A stretch of DNA of 32,000 bases from Alphaproteobacteria bacterium (GTDB taxonomy: Bacteria > Pseudomonadota > Alphaproteobacteria > Rs-D84), in NCBI GenBank assembly GCA_017475605.1, contig JAFVFD010000002.1:1-32000 (forward strand). Direction: 5' to 3'. The position numbers and the translations under genes are program-made. Every line of letters starts with the position of its first letter. Within the stretch, counting starts at the first letter, position 1. Shown piece by piece: positions 1 to 23,611 of this stretch. A model generated the notes under the pieces. The model saw nothing but the letters and a program-made list of their open reading frames with translations, ran no database searches and had not been told where the DNA came from.

Positions 1-3000
1 GGATTATGTAAGATAACAAGTTGTAAGGCAGGATCATACTATACAAGTACGAACAGTGGGAACACGAACACATGTACAGCGTGTGGTAATGGGACGTTCT
101 TGAATGGTGATGGACATACAACGACTAGTTGTACGGCATGTAGTACGACGCCAGGGTATCCGAGTGGATTTACGAGTGGTGGAACATTCAGCACGAGTCC
201 GACTAGTGCGGCGACTGCGAGCAGTGCGTGTCGGTATGTAGCGCCTGACAAGAGCACGCCGAGCAACTGTAGTGGTATCAGCAAGAACACGGTGAGTTAC
301 AGTGGCAGTGCATGGGGTACAAACTTCTATACGGTAACATCTGCGGCGGGTAAGTACATTACGTCGAACAACAATGCGAATCCGACATGTGCGGCGGCGG
401 GCAATGGGTACTATGTGGATGCGACGAATCAGACGGCACAGACACAGTGTCCGGCTGGGTATCGCAGTGGGTCTGACAATGGTCGCGATGCGAGCACAGA
501 CTGTTATGTGAACACTACGGCAGGAAGTTATGTAAAGACTGCGAAAGATGCTACACAGACACAGTGTCCGGCGAATAGTTACTGTGTTAGCACGAAAGTA
601 TACTATAACAGCACAGGTGGCAGTGCAGCATGTAGTGGTTTAGGTGGAGGCTTGTACGCGAATTCTGCGGCTGGGTCTGATGCGGCAACCGACTGCTATA
701 TCACGATTGCGGCGACGAAGTATCTGCCTGCACAATCGTCAACAGCGGTCAGCAACTGTACAGCGAACTACTATTGTCCGGGTGGCAACTTCTATTACAG
801 CAGTACCGCCACGAACCAAGGGCGCACCGCATGTGCATCGCCATACAGCAGCAGTGCGACAAGCAGTGATGATGCGAACGATTGCTATCTGACGACGACG
901 GCGGGTAAGTATGTAGCGACGGCGGGCGAGGGCGAAACGACATGTGCGTCAAACGGGTATTGTGCTGGGGGCAGTACGATATACAAGGGTGGCAGTGTAA
1001 GTGGTCGTTCAACGACTGGTGGGCGCACCGCGTGTGCATCACCGTACAGCAGTGCGGGAACAGGCCAAGATGATGCGAACGATTGCTATCTGACTACGAC
1101 GGCGGGCAAATATGTAGCGACGGCTGGTTCTGGGGAAACGGCATGTGCGGCTGGAGGTTATTGTGCTGGAGGCAGTACGATATACAAGGGTGGCAGTGTA
1201 AGTGGCCGTTCAACGACTGGTGGGCGCACAGGCTGTCCGACGGCGTATCCGAGCAGTGCAACAAGTAGCAGTAAGATAGGTCAGTGTTACTTGACGTTGA
1301 CTGCAGGAAAGCAGGTAGCGAGTGCAGGGGCAGGGTCGAGCAACTGTAGTGCTGGTCGGTATTGCACGAGTACTGGTAACATCTATTACAACACGGATGG
1401 GGGTACGGCGACATATACAGGTACACAATGTGTAGCGGGATCATACAGTACCGCGGGTGCAAGCAGCTGTACGGCATGCGGTAATGGTAAGACGAGTACG
1501 GCTGGTGCGACATCATCCAGTTCATGTACAGATTGTACTGCGATAAGTGGATCGGCTGGATGGGCGGCGACATCGTGGAATACCAACAACACGATGACCA
1601 ACCTGTGTACGACATCTGGGTGTCAAGCGAACTACTATAAGAGTGGTAACAGTTGTCCGTCATGTTCAAGTGGAACGAACAGCAAATACACCAAGAGTTC
1701 TGCTGGTACGACGACAGTGAACAACTGTTATCTGACGACGACGGCGGGTAAATATATAACATCTGCGAATGCAGGGACGGGGACAGAAAGTGCGTGTGCG
1801 GCAGGGAGTTACTGTCCTGGAAGTGTAACGATATACTACGGTGGGACCCATAGCAGCAGCCACTTGACGTATGGAGGAAGCACCGCATGTGCATCGCCAT
1901 ACAGCAGCAGTGCGGCGAGCAGTGATGATGCGAACGATTGCTATCTGACTACGACGGCGGGTAAGTATGTTGCGACGGCTGGCGCGGGCGAAACGACGTG
2001 TGCTGAGAACGGGTATTGCCCAGGTGGCAGCGACATTTACAAGGGTGGCAGTGTAACTGGTCGTGCAACGACTGGTGGGCGCACCGCGTGTACATCACCG
2101 TACAGCAGTGCGGCAACCGGCCAAGATGATGCGAACGATTGTTATTTGACTACAACAGCGACAAAGTATGTTGCAACCGCGGGCGCTGGGGAAACGACTT
2201 GTGTGGCGGGTGGTTATTGCGCGGGCGGCACAACGGTTTACAAGGGGGGCAGTGTCAGCGGTCGTGTAACGACTGGTGGTATGACGGTCTGTGCGGACAA
2301 TACATATTCTTCCGCGGGAGCATCATCTTGTACCGCATGCGGCACCGCGAACGGTTACCATAACACCGGTACGGCGGCCAGTGCACACGCAACCGTTGCA
2401 TCGTGTGTGGCAACATGTGATGCAGGACAGTATGTTGCGACGGCTGGTGCGGGCTGTATCAGTACGACTGCGGGTAATTACAGCACCGGCGGAACGGTTG
2501 CACAAGATGCAACATTATCACAAACACCATGTGCGGCGGGGACCTATGCGGCATCGGGTGGAATGTCCGCGTGTACACCTGCGGCCAAGGGGTATTATGT
2601 GTCTGGCACCGGTAAAACGGCGCAAAGCGCGTGTTATGGGGGCAAGTATCAGGATGAAACGGGCCAATCATCGTGTAAATCGTGTCCGGCGGCATATCCA
2701 TCGGGTAATTATGCGATAACATCAATTAACAGTTGTTATTACAGTTGCCTTGGCGGGACATATTATGCGAATGCGAACGATGGTAAATGTACCGATGTTG
2801 GAACGGGCTATTATGCGGCGCACCAGAATGTAAGTTATGGCAAGTCTGGAACCCGCACCGCGTGTCCGTCTGGCATGACAACGACCGGTTCGGGCTATGG
2901 CGCGGACGAGGCCGCCGACTGTGGCCGGGTTCTGAAAACCGATGGTACAAGTGTGCGCCTGCGTCAGACCAAGAAGACGACACCGTCGCTTAATGTAAAA

Positions 3001-3507
3001 ATAGGGGACACCACATATTATGGTAATATGTCATTGGTGGAACATAAGACGACGGCGGGTTCGACCAGGGCGTTGCGTGTAAAAAACAATGATGGTTCAT
3101 ACTATGTCTATGATGATACCGCACAGGAAAATCGTGGTTATCCATGGGATGCAACCGGGTTTAACATAAACACGAACGGCACGACATATACATACAGTGC
3201 GGCAAATATGACATGGGAAACGACATTCGCGTGGGGCAAGGTATCTGGTATAGCGGCATGTAATTCGACGGCGGGTTCATGGGCAGTTGCATCGCCGGAT
3301 GTCCAGGCAAACAGTGGTGGAACGCGTTGCTGGTGCAAAATGACCAATGCCGATGGCATTGATACATCCGCTGTGTCGTCCTGGGTGTTCTACGACACGA
3401 GCTCCTCGGCTGCCGTTTGTGCGTCTAACTGTGCTGGCATCTGCGGTAGCTACGTCCGTCGCTCTGCCGTCTTCCGGTCCGGCGTGTTTTCGGCCGTCGG
3501 CGATTGA
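1..3507 (+). CDS. Giant Cys/Thr/Ser/Gly-rich repeat protein, DGR target (5' end outside window, C-terminal VR)
   Basis: Frame 1 is open from base 1: GLCKITSCKAGSYYTS... precedes the first Met at 100, so the gene is 5'-partial (>1168 aa). It has CxxC / C-x-A-G-x-Y cysteine-rich modules (CTACG, SCPSCSSG) and the motif [DN]CY[LIV]xxxA[GT]xY at least 8 times. The last 45 codons are the DGR VR. Stop codon at 3505-3507. Confidence 0.9.
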   Translation, partial: GLCKITSCKAGSYYTSTNSGNTNTCTACGNGTFLNGDGHTTTSCTACSTTPGYPSGFTSGGTFSTSPTSAATASSACRYVAPDKSTPSNCSGISKNTVSYSGSAWGTNFYTVTSAAGKYITSNNNANPTCAAAGNGYYVDATNQTAQTQCPAGYRSGSDNGRDASTDCYVNTTAGSYVKTAKDATQTQCPANSYCVSTKVYYNSTGGSAACSGLGGGLYANSAAGSDAATDCYITIAATKYLPAQSSTAVSNCTANYYCPGGNFYYSSTATNQGRTACASPYSSSATSSDDANDCYLTTTAGKYVATAGEGETTCASNGYCAGGSTIYKGGSVSGRSTTGGRTACASPYSSAGTGQDDANDCYLTTTAGKYVATAGSGETACAAGGYCAGGSTIYKGGSVSGRSTTGGRTGCPTAYPSSATSSSKIGQCYLTLTAGKQVASAGAGSSNCSAGRYCTSTGNIYYNTDGGTATYTGTQCVAGSYSTAGASSCTACGNGKTSTAGATSSSSCTDCTAISGSAGWAATSWNTNNTMTNLCTTSGCQANYYKSGNSCPSCSSGTNSKYTKSSAGTTTVNNCYLTTTAGKYITSANAGTGTESACAAGSYCPGSVTIYYGGTHSSSHLTYGGSTACASPYSSSAASSDDANDCYLTTTAGKYVATAGAGETTCAENGYCPGGSDIYKGGSVTGRATTGGRTACTSPYSSAATGQDDANDCYLTTTATKYVATAGAGETTCVAGGYCAGGTTVYKGGSVSGRVTTGGMTVCADNTYSSAGASSCTACGTANGYHNTGTAASAHATVASCVATCDAGQYVATAGAGCISTTAGNYSTGGTVAQDATLSQTPCAAGTYAASGGMSACTPAAKGYYVSGTGKTAQSACYGGKYQDETGQSSCKSCPAAYPSGNYAITSINSCYYSCLGGTYYANANDGKCTDVGTGYYAAHQNVSYGKSGTRTACPSGMTTTGSGYGADEAADCGRVLKTDGTSVRLRQTKKTTPSLNVKIGDTTYYGNMSLVEHKTTAGSTRALRVKNNDGSYYVYDDTAQENRGYPWDATGFNINTNGTTYTYSAANMTWETTFAWGKVSGIAACNSTAGSWAVASPDVQANSGGTRCWCKMTNADGIDTSAVSSWVFYDTSSSAAVCASNCAGICGSYVRRSAVFRSGVFSAVGD
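821..1222 (+). repeat. Two tandem 201-bp (67-aa) intragenic repeats (GRTACASPYSS...DDANDCYLTTTAGKYVATAG.GET.C...GYCAGGSTIYKGGSVSGRSTTG)
   Basis: The string caccgc(a/g)tgtgcatc recurs at 825 and 1026 (period 201). The translated units are near identical. Confidence 0.85.
1877..2278 (+). repeat. Second pair of the same 201-bp repeat, offset 1056 bp from the first pair
   Basis: caccgcatgtgcatcg at 1881 and caccgcgtgtacatc at 2082. The units translate to G(S/R)TAC(A/T)SPYSS...DDANDCYLTTTA(G/T)KYVATAGAGETTC... Confidence 0.85.
3367..3501 (+). other. DGR variable region (VR)
   Basis: Hand alignment with the reverse complement of 5303-5437 gives 121/135 identities. All 14 mismatches (VR positions 3391-3470) lie opposite TR adenines. 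It is in frame as SAVSSWVFYDTSSSAAVCASNCAGICGSYVRRSAVFRSGVFSAVG. Confidence 0.95.
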
Positions 3508-3523
3508 TACATCGGCGCCGGGC

Positions 3524-3545
3524 CCCATGCGACCTGTCGCATGGG
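3524..3545. promoter_or_regulatory. GC-rich hairpin 23 nt downstream of VR (candidate DGR target-recognition hairpin/cruciform)
   Basis: cccatgcga (3524-3532), loop cctg (3533-3536), tcgcatggg (3537-3545): a 9-bp perfect stem with a 4-nt loop, seen directly in the sequence. Confidence 0.5.
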
Positions 3546-3565
3546 TGGGTAAAACGGAAACCGTA

Positions 3566-3600
3566 CCGCCACACACCGTGTGTGTGGCGGTATTATTTGT
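3566..3600 (+). terminator. Rho-independent terminator of the target gene
   Basis: ccgccacacac / cgt / gtgtgtggcgg forms an 11-bp stem, followed by tattatttgt. Confidence 0.6.
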
Positions 3601-3605
3601 CTTTG

Positions 3606-3657
3606 CTGCGTTCGCAATGACAAGTGGCTGGATTGTTTTGCTGCGCCCGCAATGACA
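3606..3657. repeat. Two partial (right-half) copies of the ...tcgcaatgaca palindromic element family
   Basis: tcgcaatgaca at 3612-3622 and ggattgttttgctgcgcccgcaatgaca at 3630-3657. Compare the right halves of the full elements at 5582-5657 and 10419-10588. Confidence 0.7.
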
Positions 3658-3669
3658 AAGAGGGGGGTG

Positions 3670-3698
3670 TTGCAATAGTAATAATTTGTTGCTATAAT
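3670..3698 (+). promoter_or_regulatory. Sigma70-like promoter for the small ORF (TTGCAA-17 nt-TATAAT)
   Basis: ttgcaa at 3670-3675, a 17-nt spacer, and tataat at 3693-3698. It lies 25 nt upstream of the ATG at 3723, which is preceded by a ggggggg RBS. Confidence 0.45.
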
Positions 3699-3722
3699 TA
3701 TAAAAAAGATTGGGGGGGCAAT

Positions 3723-4049
3723 ATGACGCTGGATGAAATAAGTAAATTAAACAACACCGAATGTCCGAAATTCGCATCGTTCGCGCGGGATAAGTTGCCA
3801 ATGCCAGGGAAAAAGAAACGTTTGGATGAAATATTAAACCAGGAAATAATGGTAACTGATTTTCGCATAAATAAATCAAAAAAGCAGGTCGGTGGCGAAT
3901 GTTTACAATTACAATTCGTGTTGGGTGGCGAAGTATGTGTTGCCTTTACCGGCAGTGTCGTTTTAATTGACCAAATTCAGTCAGCCGAAGGAAATATTCC
4001 GTTTGTTGCAACCGTTGTAAAAATAGATAAATATTATTCTTTTTCCTGA
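3723..4049 (+). CDS. Hypothetical 108-aa protein between VR and RT (possible non-Avd DGR accessory factor)
   Basis: The ATG at 3723 has a G-rich RBS at 3713-3719 and its own promoter. The upstream part of the 3624 ORF reads through repeat elements and is unlikely to be coding. The sequence MTLDEISKLNNTECPKF...CLQLQFVLGGEVCVAFTGSVVLIDQIQ... matches no family I recognise. Confidence 0.6.
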   Translation: MTLDEISKLNNTECPKFASFARDKLPMPGKKKRLDEILNQEIMVTDFRINKSKKQVGGECLQLQFVLGGEVCVAFTGSVVLIDQIQSAEGNIPFVATVVKIDKYYSFS

Positions 4050-4057
4050 TACGGTTT

Positions 4058-5092
4058 CTATTTTCGAAAAAGGTGTTTTCGTATAAAACGATTAACAAAG
4101 CGCGACGGGTGTGTTTGCTGAACTTTACGCATTAAACTGCGCCGGAAATTATAACTGCAGGCCCATTTAAGCCATCCATGCGCCGCCGCCAATTGACCCA
4201 TTGCATGTTCGGAACAATCATCGTGTTTGGCAATGTTTAATATGCGGCGGGTAAGTTTTGCTGTCCCGCGTCGTCGCATAAGAATAAAGCGCGGAAAATA
4301 TCGATAGCCAATAAAATTAATACCGCATTTTGTTGGCCTGATACTGTGTCGCGAAAACGTTAATTTTAATTCATCGTCTAGAAAGGTCTTGATTGCATCA
4401 AACGCCCGATGTAATTCGGCTTTGTCATTGGAAAAAAGACAAAAATCATCACAATACCGAATATATGCACGCCACCGTAATTTATGTTTAACAAAATAAT
4501 CTAATTCATTAAGGTATACATTACCCAACCATTGACTTGTTAAATTGCCGATCGGAATGTTTTTCCCATCACCACCAGAACGAATAATCTCGGACAGCAA
4601 ATCCATAATTCGCTTGTCGCTTATTTTGCGATGTAAAATTTTAATCATTATGGCATGGTCTAAACTTGGGTAAAACTTGTGTATGTCGCATTGCAGAACG
4701 TATTTATGTTTTCGCATCATTGTCATTGTGCGCATCGCTGCACCATGTAAGCCACGTCCAGGAATACAAGCGAAAGAATCTGGTATAAATATGCGCATCC
4801 ATATCGGCCCAAGGATGTTTATTAACGCATGATGCACAATGTGGTCTGGATAAAGTGGCAGTTCATAGATTTTTCGTTTCTTGGGTTCATATATCGTGAA
4901 AACATTGTATGGGGATGTATGGAATTGATTGTTCCCCAGGTCGCGTCGTAATTTTTCGATATACATATCGCGATGCTTAAGAAAATGCCGGGTTTGTGGT
5001 TTGCCAGCCTTGCTTTTTACCGCATTATTAACGGCAACGGCAAAGTTTTCATCTGATATAAAATCTTTCCACAGATTGTTGTATCTTTTCAT
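4058..5092 (-). CDS. DGR-type reverse transcriptase
   Basis: 344 aa. RT motifs: LQCDIHKFYPSLDH, IGNLTSQWLGNVYLNELD (the [I/L]GxxxSQ signature typical of DGR RTs), YIRYCDDF (YxDD box) and GINFIGYRYF. It is on the same strand as the TR and 210 nt downstream of it. Confidence 0.93.
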   Translation of the reverse strand: MKRYNNLWKDFISDENFAVAVNNAVKSKAGKPQTRHFLKHRDMYIEKLRRDLGNNQFHTSPYNVFTIYEPKKRKIYELPLYPDHIVHHALINILGPIWMRIFIPDSFACIPGRGLHGAAMRTMTMMRKHKYVLQCDIHKFYPSLDHAIMIKILHRKISDKRIMDLLSEIIRSGGDGKNIPIGNLTSQWLGNVYLNELDYFVKHKLRWRAYIRYCDDFCLFSNDKAELHRAFDAIKTFLDDELKLTFSRHSIRPTKCGINFIGYRYFPRFILMRRRGTAKLTRRILNIAKHDDCSEHAMGQLAAAHGWLKWACSYNFRRSLMRKVQQTHPSRFVNRFIRKHLFRK

Positions 5093-5437
5093 TGTTGTTT
5101 GAATATCCTGGGCGTTGGCAGAAAATATTTTCCACTACTAGCCCAGATATTCCCTGTGCATTGTATTCGTAAGAATACGTAATGTATTCAAACAGGTCGC
5201 GGTATCCCGCCTTTGATACATTCAAGGCAAACAAGTATATTACCCTTGTGTCCCACAGGTTGGCAAAACTTATACCTTTTGGCAAGTTTGTTGACCAAAG
5301 GAGCCGACGGCCGAAAACACGCCGGACCGGAAGTCGGCATAGTTACGGACGTTGTTACCGCAGTTGTTAGCACAGTTAGACGCACATTCGGCAGCCGAGG
5401 AGTTCGTGTTGTTGAACACCCAGGACGACACAGCGGA
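5093..5437 (-). ncRNA. Predicted DGR template RNA (TR plus ~210-nt spacer upstream of RT)
   Basis: By analogy with the Bordetella phage DGR, where TR plus the spacer RNA is the RT substrate. The spacer carries several hairpins: gaatatcctgggc(5101-5113)/gcccagatattc(5141-5152), the palindrome gaaaatattttc (5121-5132), and gtattc-gtaa-gaatac (5163-5178). Confidence 0.5.
5303..5437 (-). other. DGR template repeat (TR)
   Basis: It is the reverse complement of the VR with 14 differences, all at TR adenines. Read in the VR frame it has 23 A's, including 9 AAC codons (SAVSSWVFNNTNSSAAECASNCANNCGNNVRNYADFRSGVFSAVG). Confidence 0.95.
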
Positions 5438-5477
5438 AAACTGTACGCTGAACTGATACGATACCGAAACCGAATTG

Positions 5478-5486
5478 ATTATAACA
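5478..5486 (-). promoter_or_regulatory. Extended -10 element (TGtTATAAT) upstream of TR
   Basis: The minus strand reads tgttataat about 41 nt upstream of the TR 5' end. No good -35 element. Confidence 0.3.
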
Positions 5487-5509
5487 AGAAAACACAGGAA
5501 AAGAAGGCT

Positions 5510-5539
5510 AAAAAACCACCGCCATCGCGGTGGTTTTTT
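5510..5539. terminator. Bidirectional hairpin terminator (copy 1 of a 38-bp direct repeat)
   Basis: aaaaaa-ccaccgc-catc-gcggtgg-tttttt. The string aaaaaccaccgccatcgcggtggtttttt(t)gttgttatg recurs at 5693-5731. Confidence 0.55.
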
Positions 5540-5581
5540 GTTGTTATGTATAATACCACCATTATAGCAACGATTTTCTTT

Positions 5582-5692
5582 TGTCATTGCGAGGAGCCGT
5601 CAGGCGACGCGGCAATCCAGGGGGGGGTATGGATTGCTTCGCAGGCTCGCAATGACAAGGGTTGTGGATTGCCACGCTGCGCTGGCAATGAT
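5582..5692. repeat. 76-bp palindromic MITE/REP-like element (5582-5657) plus an extra right-half copy (5665-5692)
   Basis: The termini tgtcattgcgag...ctcgcaatgaca are reverse complements, with inner arms cgcggcaatc / gattgcttcgc. Confidence 0.8.
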
Positions 5693-5722
5693 AAAAACCA
5701 CCGCCATCGCGGTGGTTTTTTT
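5693..5722. terminator. Hairpin terminator, copy 2 of the direct repeat
   Basis: Same ccaccgc-catc-gcggtgg hairpin, flanked by A and T runs. Confidence 0.5.
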
Positions 5723-5775
5723 GTTGTTATGGTTGTTCTTCTTTCTTCGTCATCCCGGCGGTATTCTTCTTTCAT

Positions 5776-5909
5776 CGTCATCCCGGCGGATGCCGGGATC
5801 CAGTTTGCGAAAGCAAACTTGTTTGCGCGAACACAAACAATGTTCGTAATTACGAATAAACAAGTTGGTGCCCAAGTGGCACCAACTGGATACCGCAATT
5901 CTGCGGTAT
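5776..5909. repeat. Chain of six consecutive short hairpins/palindromes, starting with the cgtcatcccggcggatgccgggatccag element
   Basis: The six are atcccggc-ggat-gccgggat; gtttgc-gaaa-gcaaac (5803-5818); ttgtttg-N8-caaacaa (5819-5840); ttcgtaattacgaa (5843-5856); agttggtgcc-N6-ggcaccaact (5863-5888); ataccgca-attc-tgcggtat (5890-5909). Confidence 0.75.
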
Positions 5910-5979
5910 GACGAATCTCTGGAATTATCGCGTGAAAAGCAAACTTGTAATACCGATTAAATAATATTATTATTCAAGT

Positions 5980-6297
5980 ATGAAAAATGGTGGTTATGTT
6001 TATATAATGGCATCAAAACGTATGGGAACAATTTATATCGGTTCGACATCCGATTTAGTTGGGCGCGCGCTTGAACATAAAAACAAAGTTTATCCTAAAT
6101 CTTTTACCGCAAAATACGATTGCGATAAATTAGTGTATTATGAATATCATGAATCGCTGGAAAATATGGTAAAACGGGAAAGACAATTAAAAGAGTGGCC
6201 GCGTAATTGGAAGATAAAGTTAATCATAGATAAAAACACAGATTGGCACGATTTGTATTCTGAATTATTGGAAAGTTATGGGTATAAGTCGGAATAA
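5980..6297 (+). CDS. GIY-YIG nuclease-superfamily protein (UPF0213/YhbQ-like)
   Basis: GGYVYIMASKRMGTIYIGSTSDLVGRALEHK...RERQLKEW.RNWKIKLI matches the GIY...YIG...R...E...K.W pattern of small GIY-YIG proteins. Confidence 0.85.
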   Translation: MKNGGYVYIMASKRMGTIYIGSTSDLVGRALEHKNKVYPKSFTAKYDCDKLVYYEYHESLENMVKRERQLKEWPRNWKIKLIIDKNTDWHDLYSELLESYGYKSE

Positions 6298-6314
6298 CAA
6301 GTCGCCGTTGGCGA

Positions 6315-6342
6315 CTGGATCCCGGCATCCGCCGGGATGACG
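6315..6342. repeat. 28-bp element, perfect inverted copy of 5776-5803
   Basis: ctggatcccggcatccgccgggatgacg is the exact reverse complement of cgtcatcccggcggatgccgggatccag at 5776-5803. Confidence 0.9.
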
Positions 6343-6365
6343 AGTGAAAGGTCGTCATAATGACA

Positions 6366-23534: not shown

Positions 23535-23611
23535 GCGCCCATGGCTCAATTGGATAGAGCATCTGACTACGGATCAGAAGGTTGAGGGTTCGAATCCTTC
23601 TGGGCGCGCCA
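23535..23611 (+). tRNA. tRNA-Arg (anticodon ACG), CCA encoded
   Basis: Manual cloverleaf: acceptor gcgccca/tgggcgc, D stem gctc/gagc, anticodon stem tctga/tcaga with loop ctACGga, T arm gaggg-ttcgaat-ccttc, discriminator g, then cca. Confidence 0.9.

Follow-up and report, generated by a model that had tools for sequence, protein, structure and literature searches.

A chromosomal diversity-generating retroelement, very probably complete and active, in a reduced-genome gut alphaproteobacterium

Our subject is a 32-kb stretch of DNA, contig JAFVFD010000002.1 of assembly GCA_017475605.1 (Alphaproteobacteria, Rs-D84), which we refer to as the window, and the diversity-generating retroelement (DGR) with which it begins. 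DGRs are, to our knowledge, the only natural systems of targeted protein hypermutation in prokaryotes, and they are under development as directed-evolution tools. We think it very probable (roughly 0.88) that positions 1-5540 of the window are occupied by a complete, chromosomal DGR that is currently active. Its host, a gut alphaproteobacterium with a reduced genome, belongs to the Candidatus Enterousia / Rs-D84 group. Three features of the element make it worth following up: an accessory protein that resembles an oligonucleotide/oligosaccharide-binding (OB) fold instead of the usual Avd, a covarying RNA that is not in Rfam, and a variable domain that does not seem to be a C-type lectin.

Two repeats that differ only at adenines

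At the heart of the element are two copies of one sequence. A repeat search returned a 135-nt inverted repeat with arms at 3367-3501 and 5303-5437 that are 90% complementary. Read on the minus strand, the second arm is the template repeat (TR); the first is the variable repeat (VR). Compared base by base, the two agree at 121 of 135 positions, and every one of the 14 mismatches falls at a TR adenine, replaced in the VR by T (six times), G (six times) or C (twice). The probability that 14 of 14 mismatches would hit 23 adenines among 135 positions is 2e-13. The codons that carry the TR adenines are nine AAC together with ACG, GAA, TAT and GAC; the VR has changes in eight of the nine AAC codons, and no substitution of an A can turn any of these codons into a stop. 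An earlier sequence-only reading of this DNA had described the repeat, its adenine-only changes and its codon make-up, and our comparison reproduced all of them; mismatches at other TR bases, which it took to speak against a DGR, number 0. That reading had also made the VR the last 45 codons of a giant open reading frame (ORF). The VR does lie in frame at the end of the target gene, but one sense codon (GAT, Asp, 3502-3504) separates it from the stop at 3505-3507. The ORF runs off the left edge of the window, in which its C-terminal 1168 amino acids are present.

The last 30 nt of each copy form a GC-rich block that contains no adenine and resembles an initiation of mutagenic homing (IMH) sequence. 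As the sequence-only reading had it, the block is identical in the two copies, and it occurs exactly twice in the window, at 3472-3501 (+) and 5303-5332 (-), where shuffled sequences lead one to expect 0. Homology between VR and TR stops at 3501 and the flanks diverge directly after. The 32-kb window holds no second VR that matches this TR. Some of the related loci discussed below (labeled L, with proteins labeled P) have several VRs per TR, as in L013 (6440-6570 and 7817-7949) and L047 (3235-3348, 12714-12827 and 13556-13669), and a VR of L047 lies up to about 10 kb from its TR. By analogy, our DGR may have remote targets outside the window.

Beginning 22 nt after the VR is a candidate DNA hairpin or cruciform, with CCCATGCGA and TCGCATGGG as the two sides of its stem. 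The DNA fold of 3495-3600, which contains it, has a z of -6.0, and perfect-stem hairpins of 8-14 bp, with differing stem sequences, start 17-35 nt past the VR in at least 10 related loci. Phage DGRs have a hairpin with a 7-10 bp stem and a 4-nt GRNA loop, 4-34 bp downstream of the VR (Guo et al. 2011, PMC3240598), and ours agrees with that pattern in stem length, loop length and distance. It fits less well in two respects: its loop, CCTG, departs from the GRNA consensus of the phage elements (PMC3240598), and a comparable hairpin is not present in every relative.

Table 1. Features of the retroelement in the window (positions in nt from the start of the window)
Feature	Position	Strand	Basis or remark
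Target gene, C-terminal 1168 codons and stop	1..3507	+	Frame 1 open from nt 1; N-terminus outside the window
Variable domain, 106 aa, contains the VR	3187..3504	+	Alignments A2/A3; AlphaFold2 (AF2) model
Variable repeat (VR), 45 codons	3367..3501	+	121/135 identical to TR; all mismatches at TR adenines
Adenine-free GC-rich 3' block, 30 nt, IMH-like	3472..3501	+	Identical in VR and TR
Candidate DNA hairpin/cruciform, 9-bp stem CCCATGCGA/TCGCATGGG, 4-nt loop CCTG	3524..3545	+	22 nt after the VR
Intrinsic-terminator-like hairpin closing the target transcript	3563..3593	+	14-pair stem, then a T run
Promoter-like site TTGCAA-17-TATAAT, TG ahead of second hexamer	3670..3698	+	Precedes the accessory gene; consensus match only
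Accessory gene, 108 aa, pI 7.7, predicted OB fold	3723..4049	+	Conserved unannotated family linked to DGR reverse transcriptases
DGR reverse transcriptase (RT), 344 aa, IGNLTSQ and YCDD	4058..5092	-	Starts 210 nt after the end of the TR
TR-RT spacer, conserved structured RNA, 210 nt	5093..5302	-	Alignment, RNAalifold, covariation
Spacer RNA, helix of 12 bp	5152-5141 with 5113-5101	-	Added by inspection
Spacer RNA, hairpin	5135-5131 with 5122-5118	-	
Spacer RNA, long-range helix	5259-5255 with 5157-5153	-	
Spacer RNA, hairpin	5252-5244 with 5237-5230	-	
Spacer RNA, invariant block AGTTTTGCCAACCTGTGGGACA	5270-5249	-	
Template repeat (TR), 23 adenines, 9 in-frame AAC codons	5303..5437	-	Repeat comparison; identical in five other assemblies
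Extended -10-like sequence TGTTATAAT	5478..5486	-	About 40 nt upstream of the TR; read by eye
Palindromic, bidirectional terminator-like hairpin bounding the cassette	5509..5540		Recurs at 5693-5721

A variable repeat that changes between near-identical genomes

Exact-protein look-ups with the RT and the small ORF beside it led us to five public assemblies of the same organism, and it is from these consensus assemblies that our evidence for activity comes. (JGI metagenome contigs searched for the invariant 24-nt head of the repeat gave nothing.) The TR is identical in all five; the VR is present as four alleles. The sequence-only reading had proposed mapping reads onto the VR to see whether polymorphism is confined to TR adenines. 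Done on assemblies in place of reads, the comparison puts 21 of 22 polymorphic sites at TR adenines (binomial tail 1e-15).

Between the window and the assemblies L063 and L064 there are 12 differences in the 135-nt VR and 4-5 outside it over about 14 kb, a density of differences in the VR roughly 300-fold above that of the flank. Two further assemblies, L065 and L066, come from a strain about 2% divergent and share the same differences from the window outside the VR; inside it they differ from one another at six positions, all of them TR adenines. This strain has zero substitutions in the TR and the 210-nt spacer, and the changes in its RT and accessory genes are synonymous. The VRs of the window and L063 agree in their 5' part and differ in their 3' part, which would be the expected product of partial replacement by a cDNA anchored at the 3' end. 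Adenine-restricted variation of the VR between near-identical genomes means that the element is active.

Three observations pull the other way. L065 (VR at 5842-5976) and L066 (VR at 5769-5903) agree in the 3' half to two-thirds of the VR and their six differences are confined to the 5' part. This is the opposite of what one round of 3'-anchored retrohoming would give, and suggests recombination between alleles, or an exchange of cDNA initiated or terminated internally. Position 3423 is C in L063 and L064 and G in the TR and all other VR alleles; the change is synonymous, lies at a non-adenine site, and could be an ordinary mutation or a rare non-adenine misincorporation. Finally, L063 and L064 are possibly two assemblies of one sample, and the alleles compared are those of consensus assemblies.

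One could make of these points a decayed relic, with old differences between VR and TR and with differences between assemblies that stem from ordinary mutation or recombination. The limitation to consensus assemblies, the one non-adenine difference, and the pattern in L065 and L066 (shared 3' half, differing 5' half, unexplained by a single 3'-anchored retrohoming) would all suit a relic. We nevertheless hold it to be very improbable, for the RT, the accessory gene, the TR and the spacer RNA are all intact, and the density and adenine bias of the VR differences are those just given.

The reverse transcriptase and the spacer RNA

The enzyme predicted to copy the template is a 344-aa RT, encoded 210 nt after the TR and carrying the IGxxxSQ and YxDD motifs, all as the sequence-only reading had reported. 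The closest solved structure is that of the Bordetella phage DGR RT (8ub7_A, E = 7.5e-47, residues 2-316), whose IGSLTSQ and YMDD align to the IGNLTSQ and YCDD of our protein. The next structures are group II intron RTs (4.7e-17) and retron RTs (about 1e-3), so the DGR enzyme leads by about 30 orders of magnitude in E-value. The protein matches Pfam RVT_1 and, at 8e-94, phrog_1423, and its annotated phage relatives are DGR phages: ANMV-1, crAssphage LMMB and the Bordetella phages. From species-representative genomes we assembled a set of 58 related RT loci (RT identity 39-73%), mostly gut and rumen metagenome-assembled genomes (MAGs) labeled Alphaproteobacteria or Candidatus Enterousia. A script for adenine-biased repeat pairs detected a TR and VR in 45 of them. 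By these sequence comparisons the RT is a DGR-type enzyme.

The sequence-only reading had asked whether the RT might lie nearer to the retron, group II or abortive infection (Abi) enzymes. We give next to no credence to an RT from a retron, a group II intron, or an Abi or DRT defense system, sitting by chance beside an unrelated inverted repeat. The group II, retron and DRT models of NCBIfam and PADLOC do return E-values of 5e-30 to 1e-9, but the NCBIfam bit scores are far below all cut-offs (group II 104.8 against 300, retron St85 56 against 235, with Drt2-5 and AbiA likewise below), and PADLOC gives generic RT matches only. There is no maturase or endonuclease domain and no Rfam match to a non-coding RNA, the margin in favor of the DGR structure is as stated, and the adenine-only pattern is specific to DGRs.

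Between TR and RT lies the 210-nt spacer, which we aligned in 21 loci (the window and 20 related ones). The alignment contains invariant blocks, among them AGTTTTGCCAACCTGTGGGACA and AGTTTnGCnAACCTGnGGGACA. RNAalifold gave one long-range helix and one hairpin, to which we added a second helix and a second hairpin by inspection (Table 1). The 32 proposed pairs are paired in 90.5% of the cells of the alignment, against 32-50% when the partners are slid along, and in 17 of them both sides have changed, where the slid controls have 6-10 such pairs. The spacer is a conserved structured RNA, supported by covariation. No Rfam family matches it, either at the gathering score or at E ≤ 1. In Bordetella a spacer RNA is needed for priming; ours would correspond by its position to that TR-proximal RNA.

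As to how these parts might be transcribed, the top score of a promoter scan (10 of 12 matches) went to the TTGCAA-17-TATAAT site ahead of the accessory gene. The scan did not report the extended -10-like sequence TGTTATAAT upstream of the TR, which we read by eye as a possible promoter of the TR-RNA-RT transcript.

An accessory protein other than Avd

The small ORF between target and RT is the conserved accessory gene of its clade and not a bystander. The 108-aa protein that it encodes has 122 close homologs, none of them annotated, and a profile search of 1.84 billion cluster representatives returned 804 homologs at E ≤ 1e-3 and 308 at E ≤ 1e-10. Members are about 100 aa long, with a mean isoelectric point (pI) of 8.2. 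The protein has no match in Pfam, NCBIfam, PADLOC or PDB sequences (for the PDB, with single sequence and profile alike); distant members fall in phrog_19665 of the PHROGs, function unknown.

What ties the family to DGRs is its genomic company. By tblastn, 48 of the 58 related loci have the accessory gene next to the RT and in the same orientation. Its place in the Enterousia clade is ahead of the RT, following the TR RNA. More distant loci, whose assignments include Clostridia, Bacteroidales, Deltaproteobacteria and Spirochaetaceae, have it directly after the RT. L043 has a further divergent copy directly after its RT. Two distant members that we looked up were both immediately downstream of a DGR-like RT, and three proteins (P0269, P0360 and P0337) are RTs with the accessory domain fused in frame at the C-terminus. 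All five other assemblies encode the same protein, including those of the strain about 2% divergent in DNA.

Avd is a pentameric protein of four-helix bundles, present in about 74% of DGRs, and structures of it should be in the PDB. The AlphaFold model of our protein (predicted local distance difference test, pLDDT, 90.9) does not look like it. The model is mainly beta, with short N-terminal helices followed by b1-b2-b3-helix-b4-b5, five strands and only short helices, and predicts the strand order of an OB fold. The best Foldseek matches are OB domains (RuvBL domain II, hSSB1, HIN-200 and RPA), with weak scores (E 0.02-0.5, template modeling (TM) score 0.36-0.48). Nor did Avd turn up elsewhere: its Pfam model matched none of the 145 ORFs of 80-200 aa that lie no farther than 2.5 kb from the RT in 14 loci (the window and 13 relatives), and the cassette has no room for another gene. 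From genomic association and predicted structure we infer that the 108-aa protein is a functional partner of the RT in this lineage, in the role that Avd has elsewhere. Binding of template RNA or cDNA would be the natural guess for an OB fold. Our literature searches found no description of an OB-fold or other non-Avd accessory protein in DGRs. We told the family apart from the classes of Wu et al. 2018 by description, and it may coincide with one of their minor PAG1-4 genes.

Some of this sits uneasily with such a role. The OB assignment comes from a predicted model and weak Foldseek scores; Avd is poorly conserved, and a very divergent Avd could escape the Pfam model; and in our organism the accessory gene lies on the opposite strand to the RT, unlike in all other related loci except the assemblies of the same organism, so co-expression with the RT is not guaranteed.

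The DGR might then be genuine and the 108-aa ORF a passenger, with RT and RNA sufficing as in the accessory-less 'Architecture A' of Wu et al. Such elements are common enough (29% of catalogued DGRs are without an accessory gene; PMC5758913), and an ORF on the other strand, with its own promoter-like site and without an annotated homolog, would fit. We regard a passenger as improbable, if less so than the two alternatives above, since the ORF stands beside the RT in loci that include some assigned to other phyla and in two relative positions, is fused to RTs in frame, follows a DGR-like RT in both distant members sampled blind, has a homolog after the RT of ANMV-1, and is kept as the same protein in every assembly of the organism. 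A functional partner of the RT is the reading we prefer.

The target and its variable domain

The target is a cysteine-rich protein built on 201-nt (67-aa) repeats of families D1-D5, which lie at 1-2500 of the window, and it has no Pfam or NCBIfam match. Its full length is seen in L063 (5361-9785), where it has about 1475 aa and an N-terminal signal peptide, MANFWEKISKTKSVWTRAVFGAILLFGVIGASNSFAAG. Length varies between strains, from about 1475 aa in L063 to more than 1993 aa in L065 (1-5982, incomplete) and more than 3243 aa in the L001 ortholog, so repeat number varies besides the variation brought by the DGR. Just upstream of the variable domain is a module (2752-3120; GADEAADCGRVL...TPSLNVKIGDTTYYGNM...YDD) that also terminates many non-diversified homologs, at '...YSVHDDSM' (P0002, P0004-P0005 and P0007-P0012). 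The DGR target looks like such a non-diversified protein with a variable domain appended.

That variable domain, 106 aa long, is found alone behind a signal peptide in relatives' proteins of 141-160 aa (P0003, for example). A profile search gave 228 homologs, almost none with a Pfam domain. Six cysteines are invariant in the family; three are inside the VR, at i, i+4 and i+8, in codons free of adenine. The AF2 model, built from 44 sequences, has a pLDDT of 93.3 and a predicted TM score (pTM) of 0.85, and all five models reach at least 91. It consists of five beta strands followed by helices at 75-92 and 94-100. The adenine-bearing codons are residues 69-72, 77, 81, 84, 85, 88, 89, 92, 93 and 95. 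In the model the mutable residues occupy the tail of the last strand and one side of the long helix, with cysteines 78, 82 and 86 on the adjacent face; residues 77, 81, 84, 85, 88, 89 and 92 and these cysteines have helical spacing within the predicted helix 75-92. The fold and its three disulfides are predictions from the model, and ligand binding would be the function of the domain.

By this model the domain is apparently not a C-type lectin. Foldseek found nothing in the PDB (best E = 4.2, TM ≤ 0.2) or in BFVD, the profile matched no PDB sequence, and hhalign gave a probability of 0.4% against the Mtd-like VR domains of distant relatives. In a positive control, those Mtd-like domains recovered Mtd at 7e-16.

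All solved DGR variable proteins have the C-type lectin fold and new variants of it keep appearing (PMC8144416); Roux et al. 2021 predicted the same fold for uncharacterised VR domains (PMC8144416). Our model came from 44 sequences, and Foldseek was the sole structure search. A highly divergent C-type lectin fold, missed by prediction or search, is therefore an alternative that we find unlikely, though the least unlikely of those considered here. Weighing against it are the agreement of five models (pLDDT 91-93) on five strands and two C-terminal helices, with the variable residues on a helix, the empty Foldseek search of the whole PDB, the lack of a PDB sequence match to the profile, and the hhalign probability of 0.4% against Mtd-like domains that themselves recover Mtd.

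Gene order, neighbors and host

The genes run target (+), accessory (+), RT (-), RNA (-), TR (-). In most relatives the order is target-TR-RNA-accessory-RT, all on a single strand. The target also converges on the RT in L001 (the closest relative, 73% RT identity), L006 and L038, where the accessory gene stays between TR and RT; only in our organism is it inverted beyond the RT, tail to tail with it, 8 nt from the RT stop. The convergent layout is a minority arrangement in the clade. The sequence-only reading was right that it is inverted relative to the classic operon. It is a variant and not a new principle, however, because split-strand cassettes are already documented: 48 DGR architectures have been catalogued, including some with components, even TR and RT, on different strands (PMC5758913).

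A short repeat containing CGCAATGACAA occurs at 3602-3623, 3637-3658, 5574-5602 (inverted) and 5673-5694, and thus flanks the accessory-RT-TR block on both sides and in both orientations. The gap between RT and target in L001 is filled with a repeat of the same type. We considered, and rejected, the idea that one inversion between flanking CGCAATGACAA repeats had produced the layout. Inverting the accessory-RT-TR block does not yield the relatives' TR-accessory-RT order, so at least two rearrangements are needed, for which the repeats may have been substrates.

The neighboring genes are housekeeping ones (RNase E/G, an LPG-synthase-like protein, RNase PH, GroEL and RecG). No phage genes were seen among the neighbors of the DGR, and on that ground we call the element chromosomal.

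The region beyond the cassette has features of its own. An identical 29-nt palindromic, terminator-like element, AAAAACCACCGCCATCGCGGTGGTTTTTT, occurs at 5510-5539 and 5693-5721, 182 nt apart. A gene for a GIY-YIG nuclease (105 aa, 5980-6297) is bracketed by perfect 30-bp inverted repeats, TCGTCATCCCGGCGGATGCCGGGATCCAGT, at 5775-5804 and 6314-6343. The right-hand copy holds or adjoins most of the few differences between otherwise identical assemblies (6329, 6345 and 6349), and the GIY-YIG unit beside the DGR could be a small mobile or recombining unit. Public gene calls (L059 and L063) include a 232-aa ORF at 5213-5911 (+). It runs across the TR, the short repeats and the terminator palindromes, has neither a homolog nor a domain, and is probably a spurious call. 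The sole Rfam match within the 32-kb window is a tRNA gene at 23535-23608.

Genomes of Candidatus Enterousia (order Rs-D84) are about 0.75-1.0 Mb, the majority below 1 Mb; respiration is missing from them, as is much of central metabolism. These losses and small genomes imply a partner-dependent life in animal guts (PMC12306168). The Enterousia paper does not mention DGRs (PMC12306168).

A proposed mechanism

Put together, the parts suggest the following course of events, of which priming, the details of integration and the promoter are pieced together by inference. Transcription of the minus strand would begin just upstream of the TR, at a predicted start near 5471, and run through the TR (5437-5303), the structured RNA (5302-5093) and finally the RT gene. 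RNA of this transcript would be bound by the RT, probably together with the 108-aa protein of predicted OB fold, and the TR copied into cDNA with random nucleotides inserted opposite the 23 template adenines. The cDNA would then take the place of the target gene's 3'-terminal VR (3367-3501). The adenine-free 30-nt block shared by TR and VR would direct this exchange, probably with help from the hairpin that lies 22 nt past the VR. Thirteen codons would be recoded in this way, for about 1e13 possible peptides. The recoded residues would lie at a strand end and on a helix face, in a 106-aa domain at the tip of a secreted repeat protein of roughly 1475 aa, and the likely outcome would be altered binding by a partner-dependent bacterium.

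Comparison with known systems

The element invites comparison with that of Bordetella phage BPP-1 (mtd-avd-TR-brt). The RTs are homologous over their full length, and in both elements TR and VR differ specifically at adenines and the target ORF carries its VR at the 3' end. Each also has a 3' block rich in GC and free of adenine, a hairpin (a candidate one in our case) whose loop is 4 nt and which follows soon after the VR, and a spacer between TR and RT that is a non-coding RNA. They part company in several ways. Where BPP-1 has Avd, our DGR has an unrelated 108-aa protein with a predicted OB fold. The BPP-1 target is a phage tail fiber, ours a chromosomal secreted repeat protein whose variable domain is not Mtd-like. 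Here, unlike in BPP-1, target and TR-RT module converge; IMH and IMH* differ in BPP-1, whereas the 3' 30 nt of our TR and VR are identical; and the hairpin loop is CCTG where the BPP-1 type is GRNA.

ANMV-1 (L072; Paul et al. 2015, PMC4372165; KP703175.1) is an archaeal virus whose RT is 36% identical to ours over 98% of its length and is directly followed by a homolog of the 108-aa protein, AJP62065.1, annotated as hypothetical. Its order is target-TR-RT-accessory on one strand, and its target, annotated AdtA, lies beside tail-fiber genes in the virus genome; our element is cellular. The ANMV-1 paper uses 'Avd' in two figure legends only, one of which describes a gray ANMV-1 'Avd' arrow that is never discussed in the text (PMC4372165). 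Between target and RT, at 2244-2438, ANMV-1 also has an annotated 64-aa hypothetical protein with an Asn-rich, TR-like peptide (VGGNYNNTDKAGVFNTNINNT...), which is probably the TR and not a gene.

Closer to home, the other Enterousia / Rs-D84 DGRs (L001-L036) have an RT of the same clade (51-73% identity), the same accessory protein (58-74%), the RNA after the TR and the cysteine-rich variable domain. They differ in that all of them carry the accessory gene on the RT strand, after the TR RNA and before the RT; most are in target-TR-accessory-RT order, and many of their targets are small proteins of 141-160 aa (signal peptide plus variable domain).

The DGRs of candidate phyla radiation (CPR) bacteria and DPANN archaea carry unclassified VR classes (Wu et al. 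2018, PMC5758913). Likened by description, they resemble ours in their reduced-genome, partner-dependent hosts and in VR domains that do not align with known classes (PMC5758913), in a phylum other than that of our organism. HRDC, MSL and CH1 (PMC5758913) are, like our accessory gene, small ORFs conserved beside the RT or TR in a DGR lineage, and CH1 likewise occurs only in DGRs without avd. Their descriptions set the 108-aa protein (pI 7.7, predicted OB fold, no Pfam match) apart: CH1 has 160-169 aa and a pI of 4.7, MSL resembles the MutS mismatch-binding domain, and HRDC is helical (PMC5758913).

What the element may mean

Nearly all that is known of DGR mechanism was learned from a single, Avd-dependent phage element. 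We would give slightly less than even odds to a broader claim: that in a widespread lineage of DGRs a small OB-fold protein, sometimes fused to the RT, has taken the place of the pentameric Avd, and that the Enterousia branch of this lineage diversifies a cysteine-rich scaffold other than the C-type lectin, with the randomized residues along the face of a helix. The lineage marked by the accessory family comprises at least 800 clusters at 50% identity, from gut Alphaproteobacteria, MAGs assigned to several other phyla and the archaeal virus ANMV-1. If the claim is true, it contradicts the assumption that DGR cDNA synthesis needs Avd-like partners, and also the assumption that massive DGR variation rides essentially only on C-type lectin folds. 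According to the largest survey, VR domains yet to be characterised should prove to be further variants of the C-type lectin, the fold of all solved variable proteins (PMC8144416).

The locus would make a compact test case for both questions. One is what an accessory factor contributes and whether an OB-fold protein could stand in for it; the other is whether a different and much smaller scaffold, of 106 aa, can tolerate about 1e13 variants. As to the organism, hypermutation directed at a large secreted protein has been retained in a gut bacterium that depends obligately on partners and has a genome of about 0.7-1.0 Mb, in parallel with what has been reported for CPR and DPANN organisms. The target is probably a protein used for attachment to its partners.

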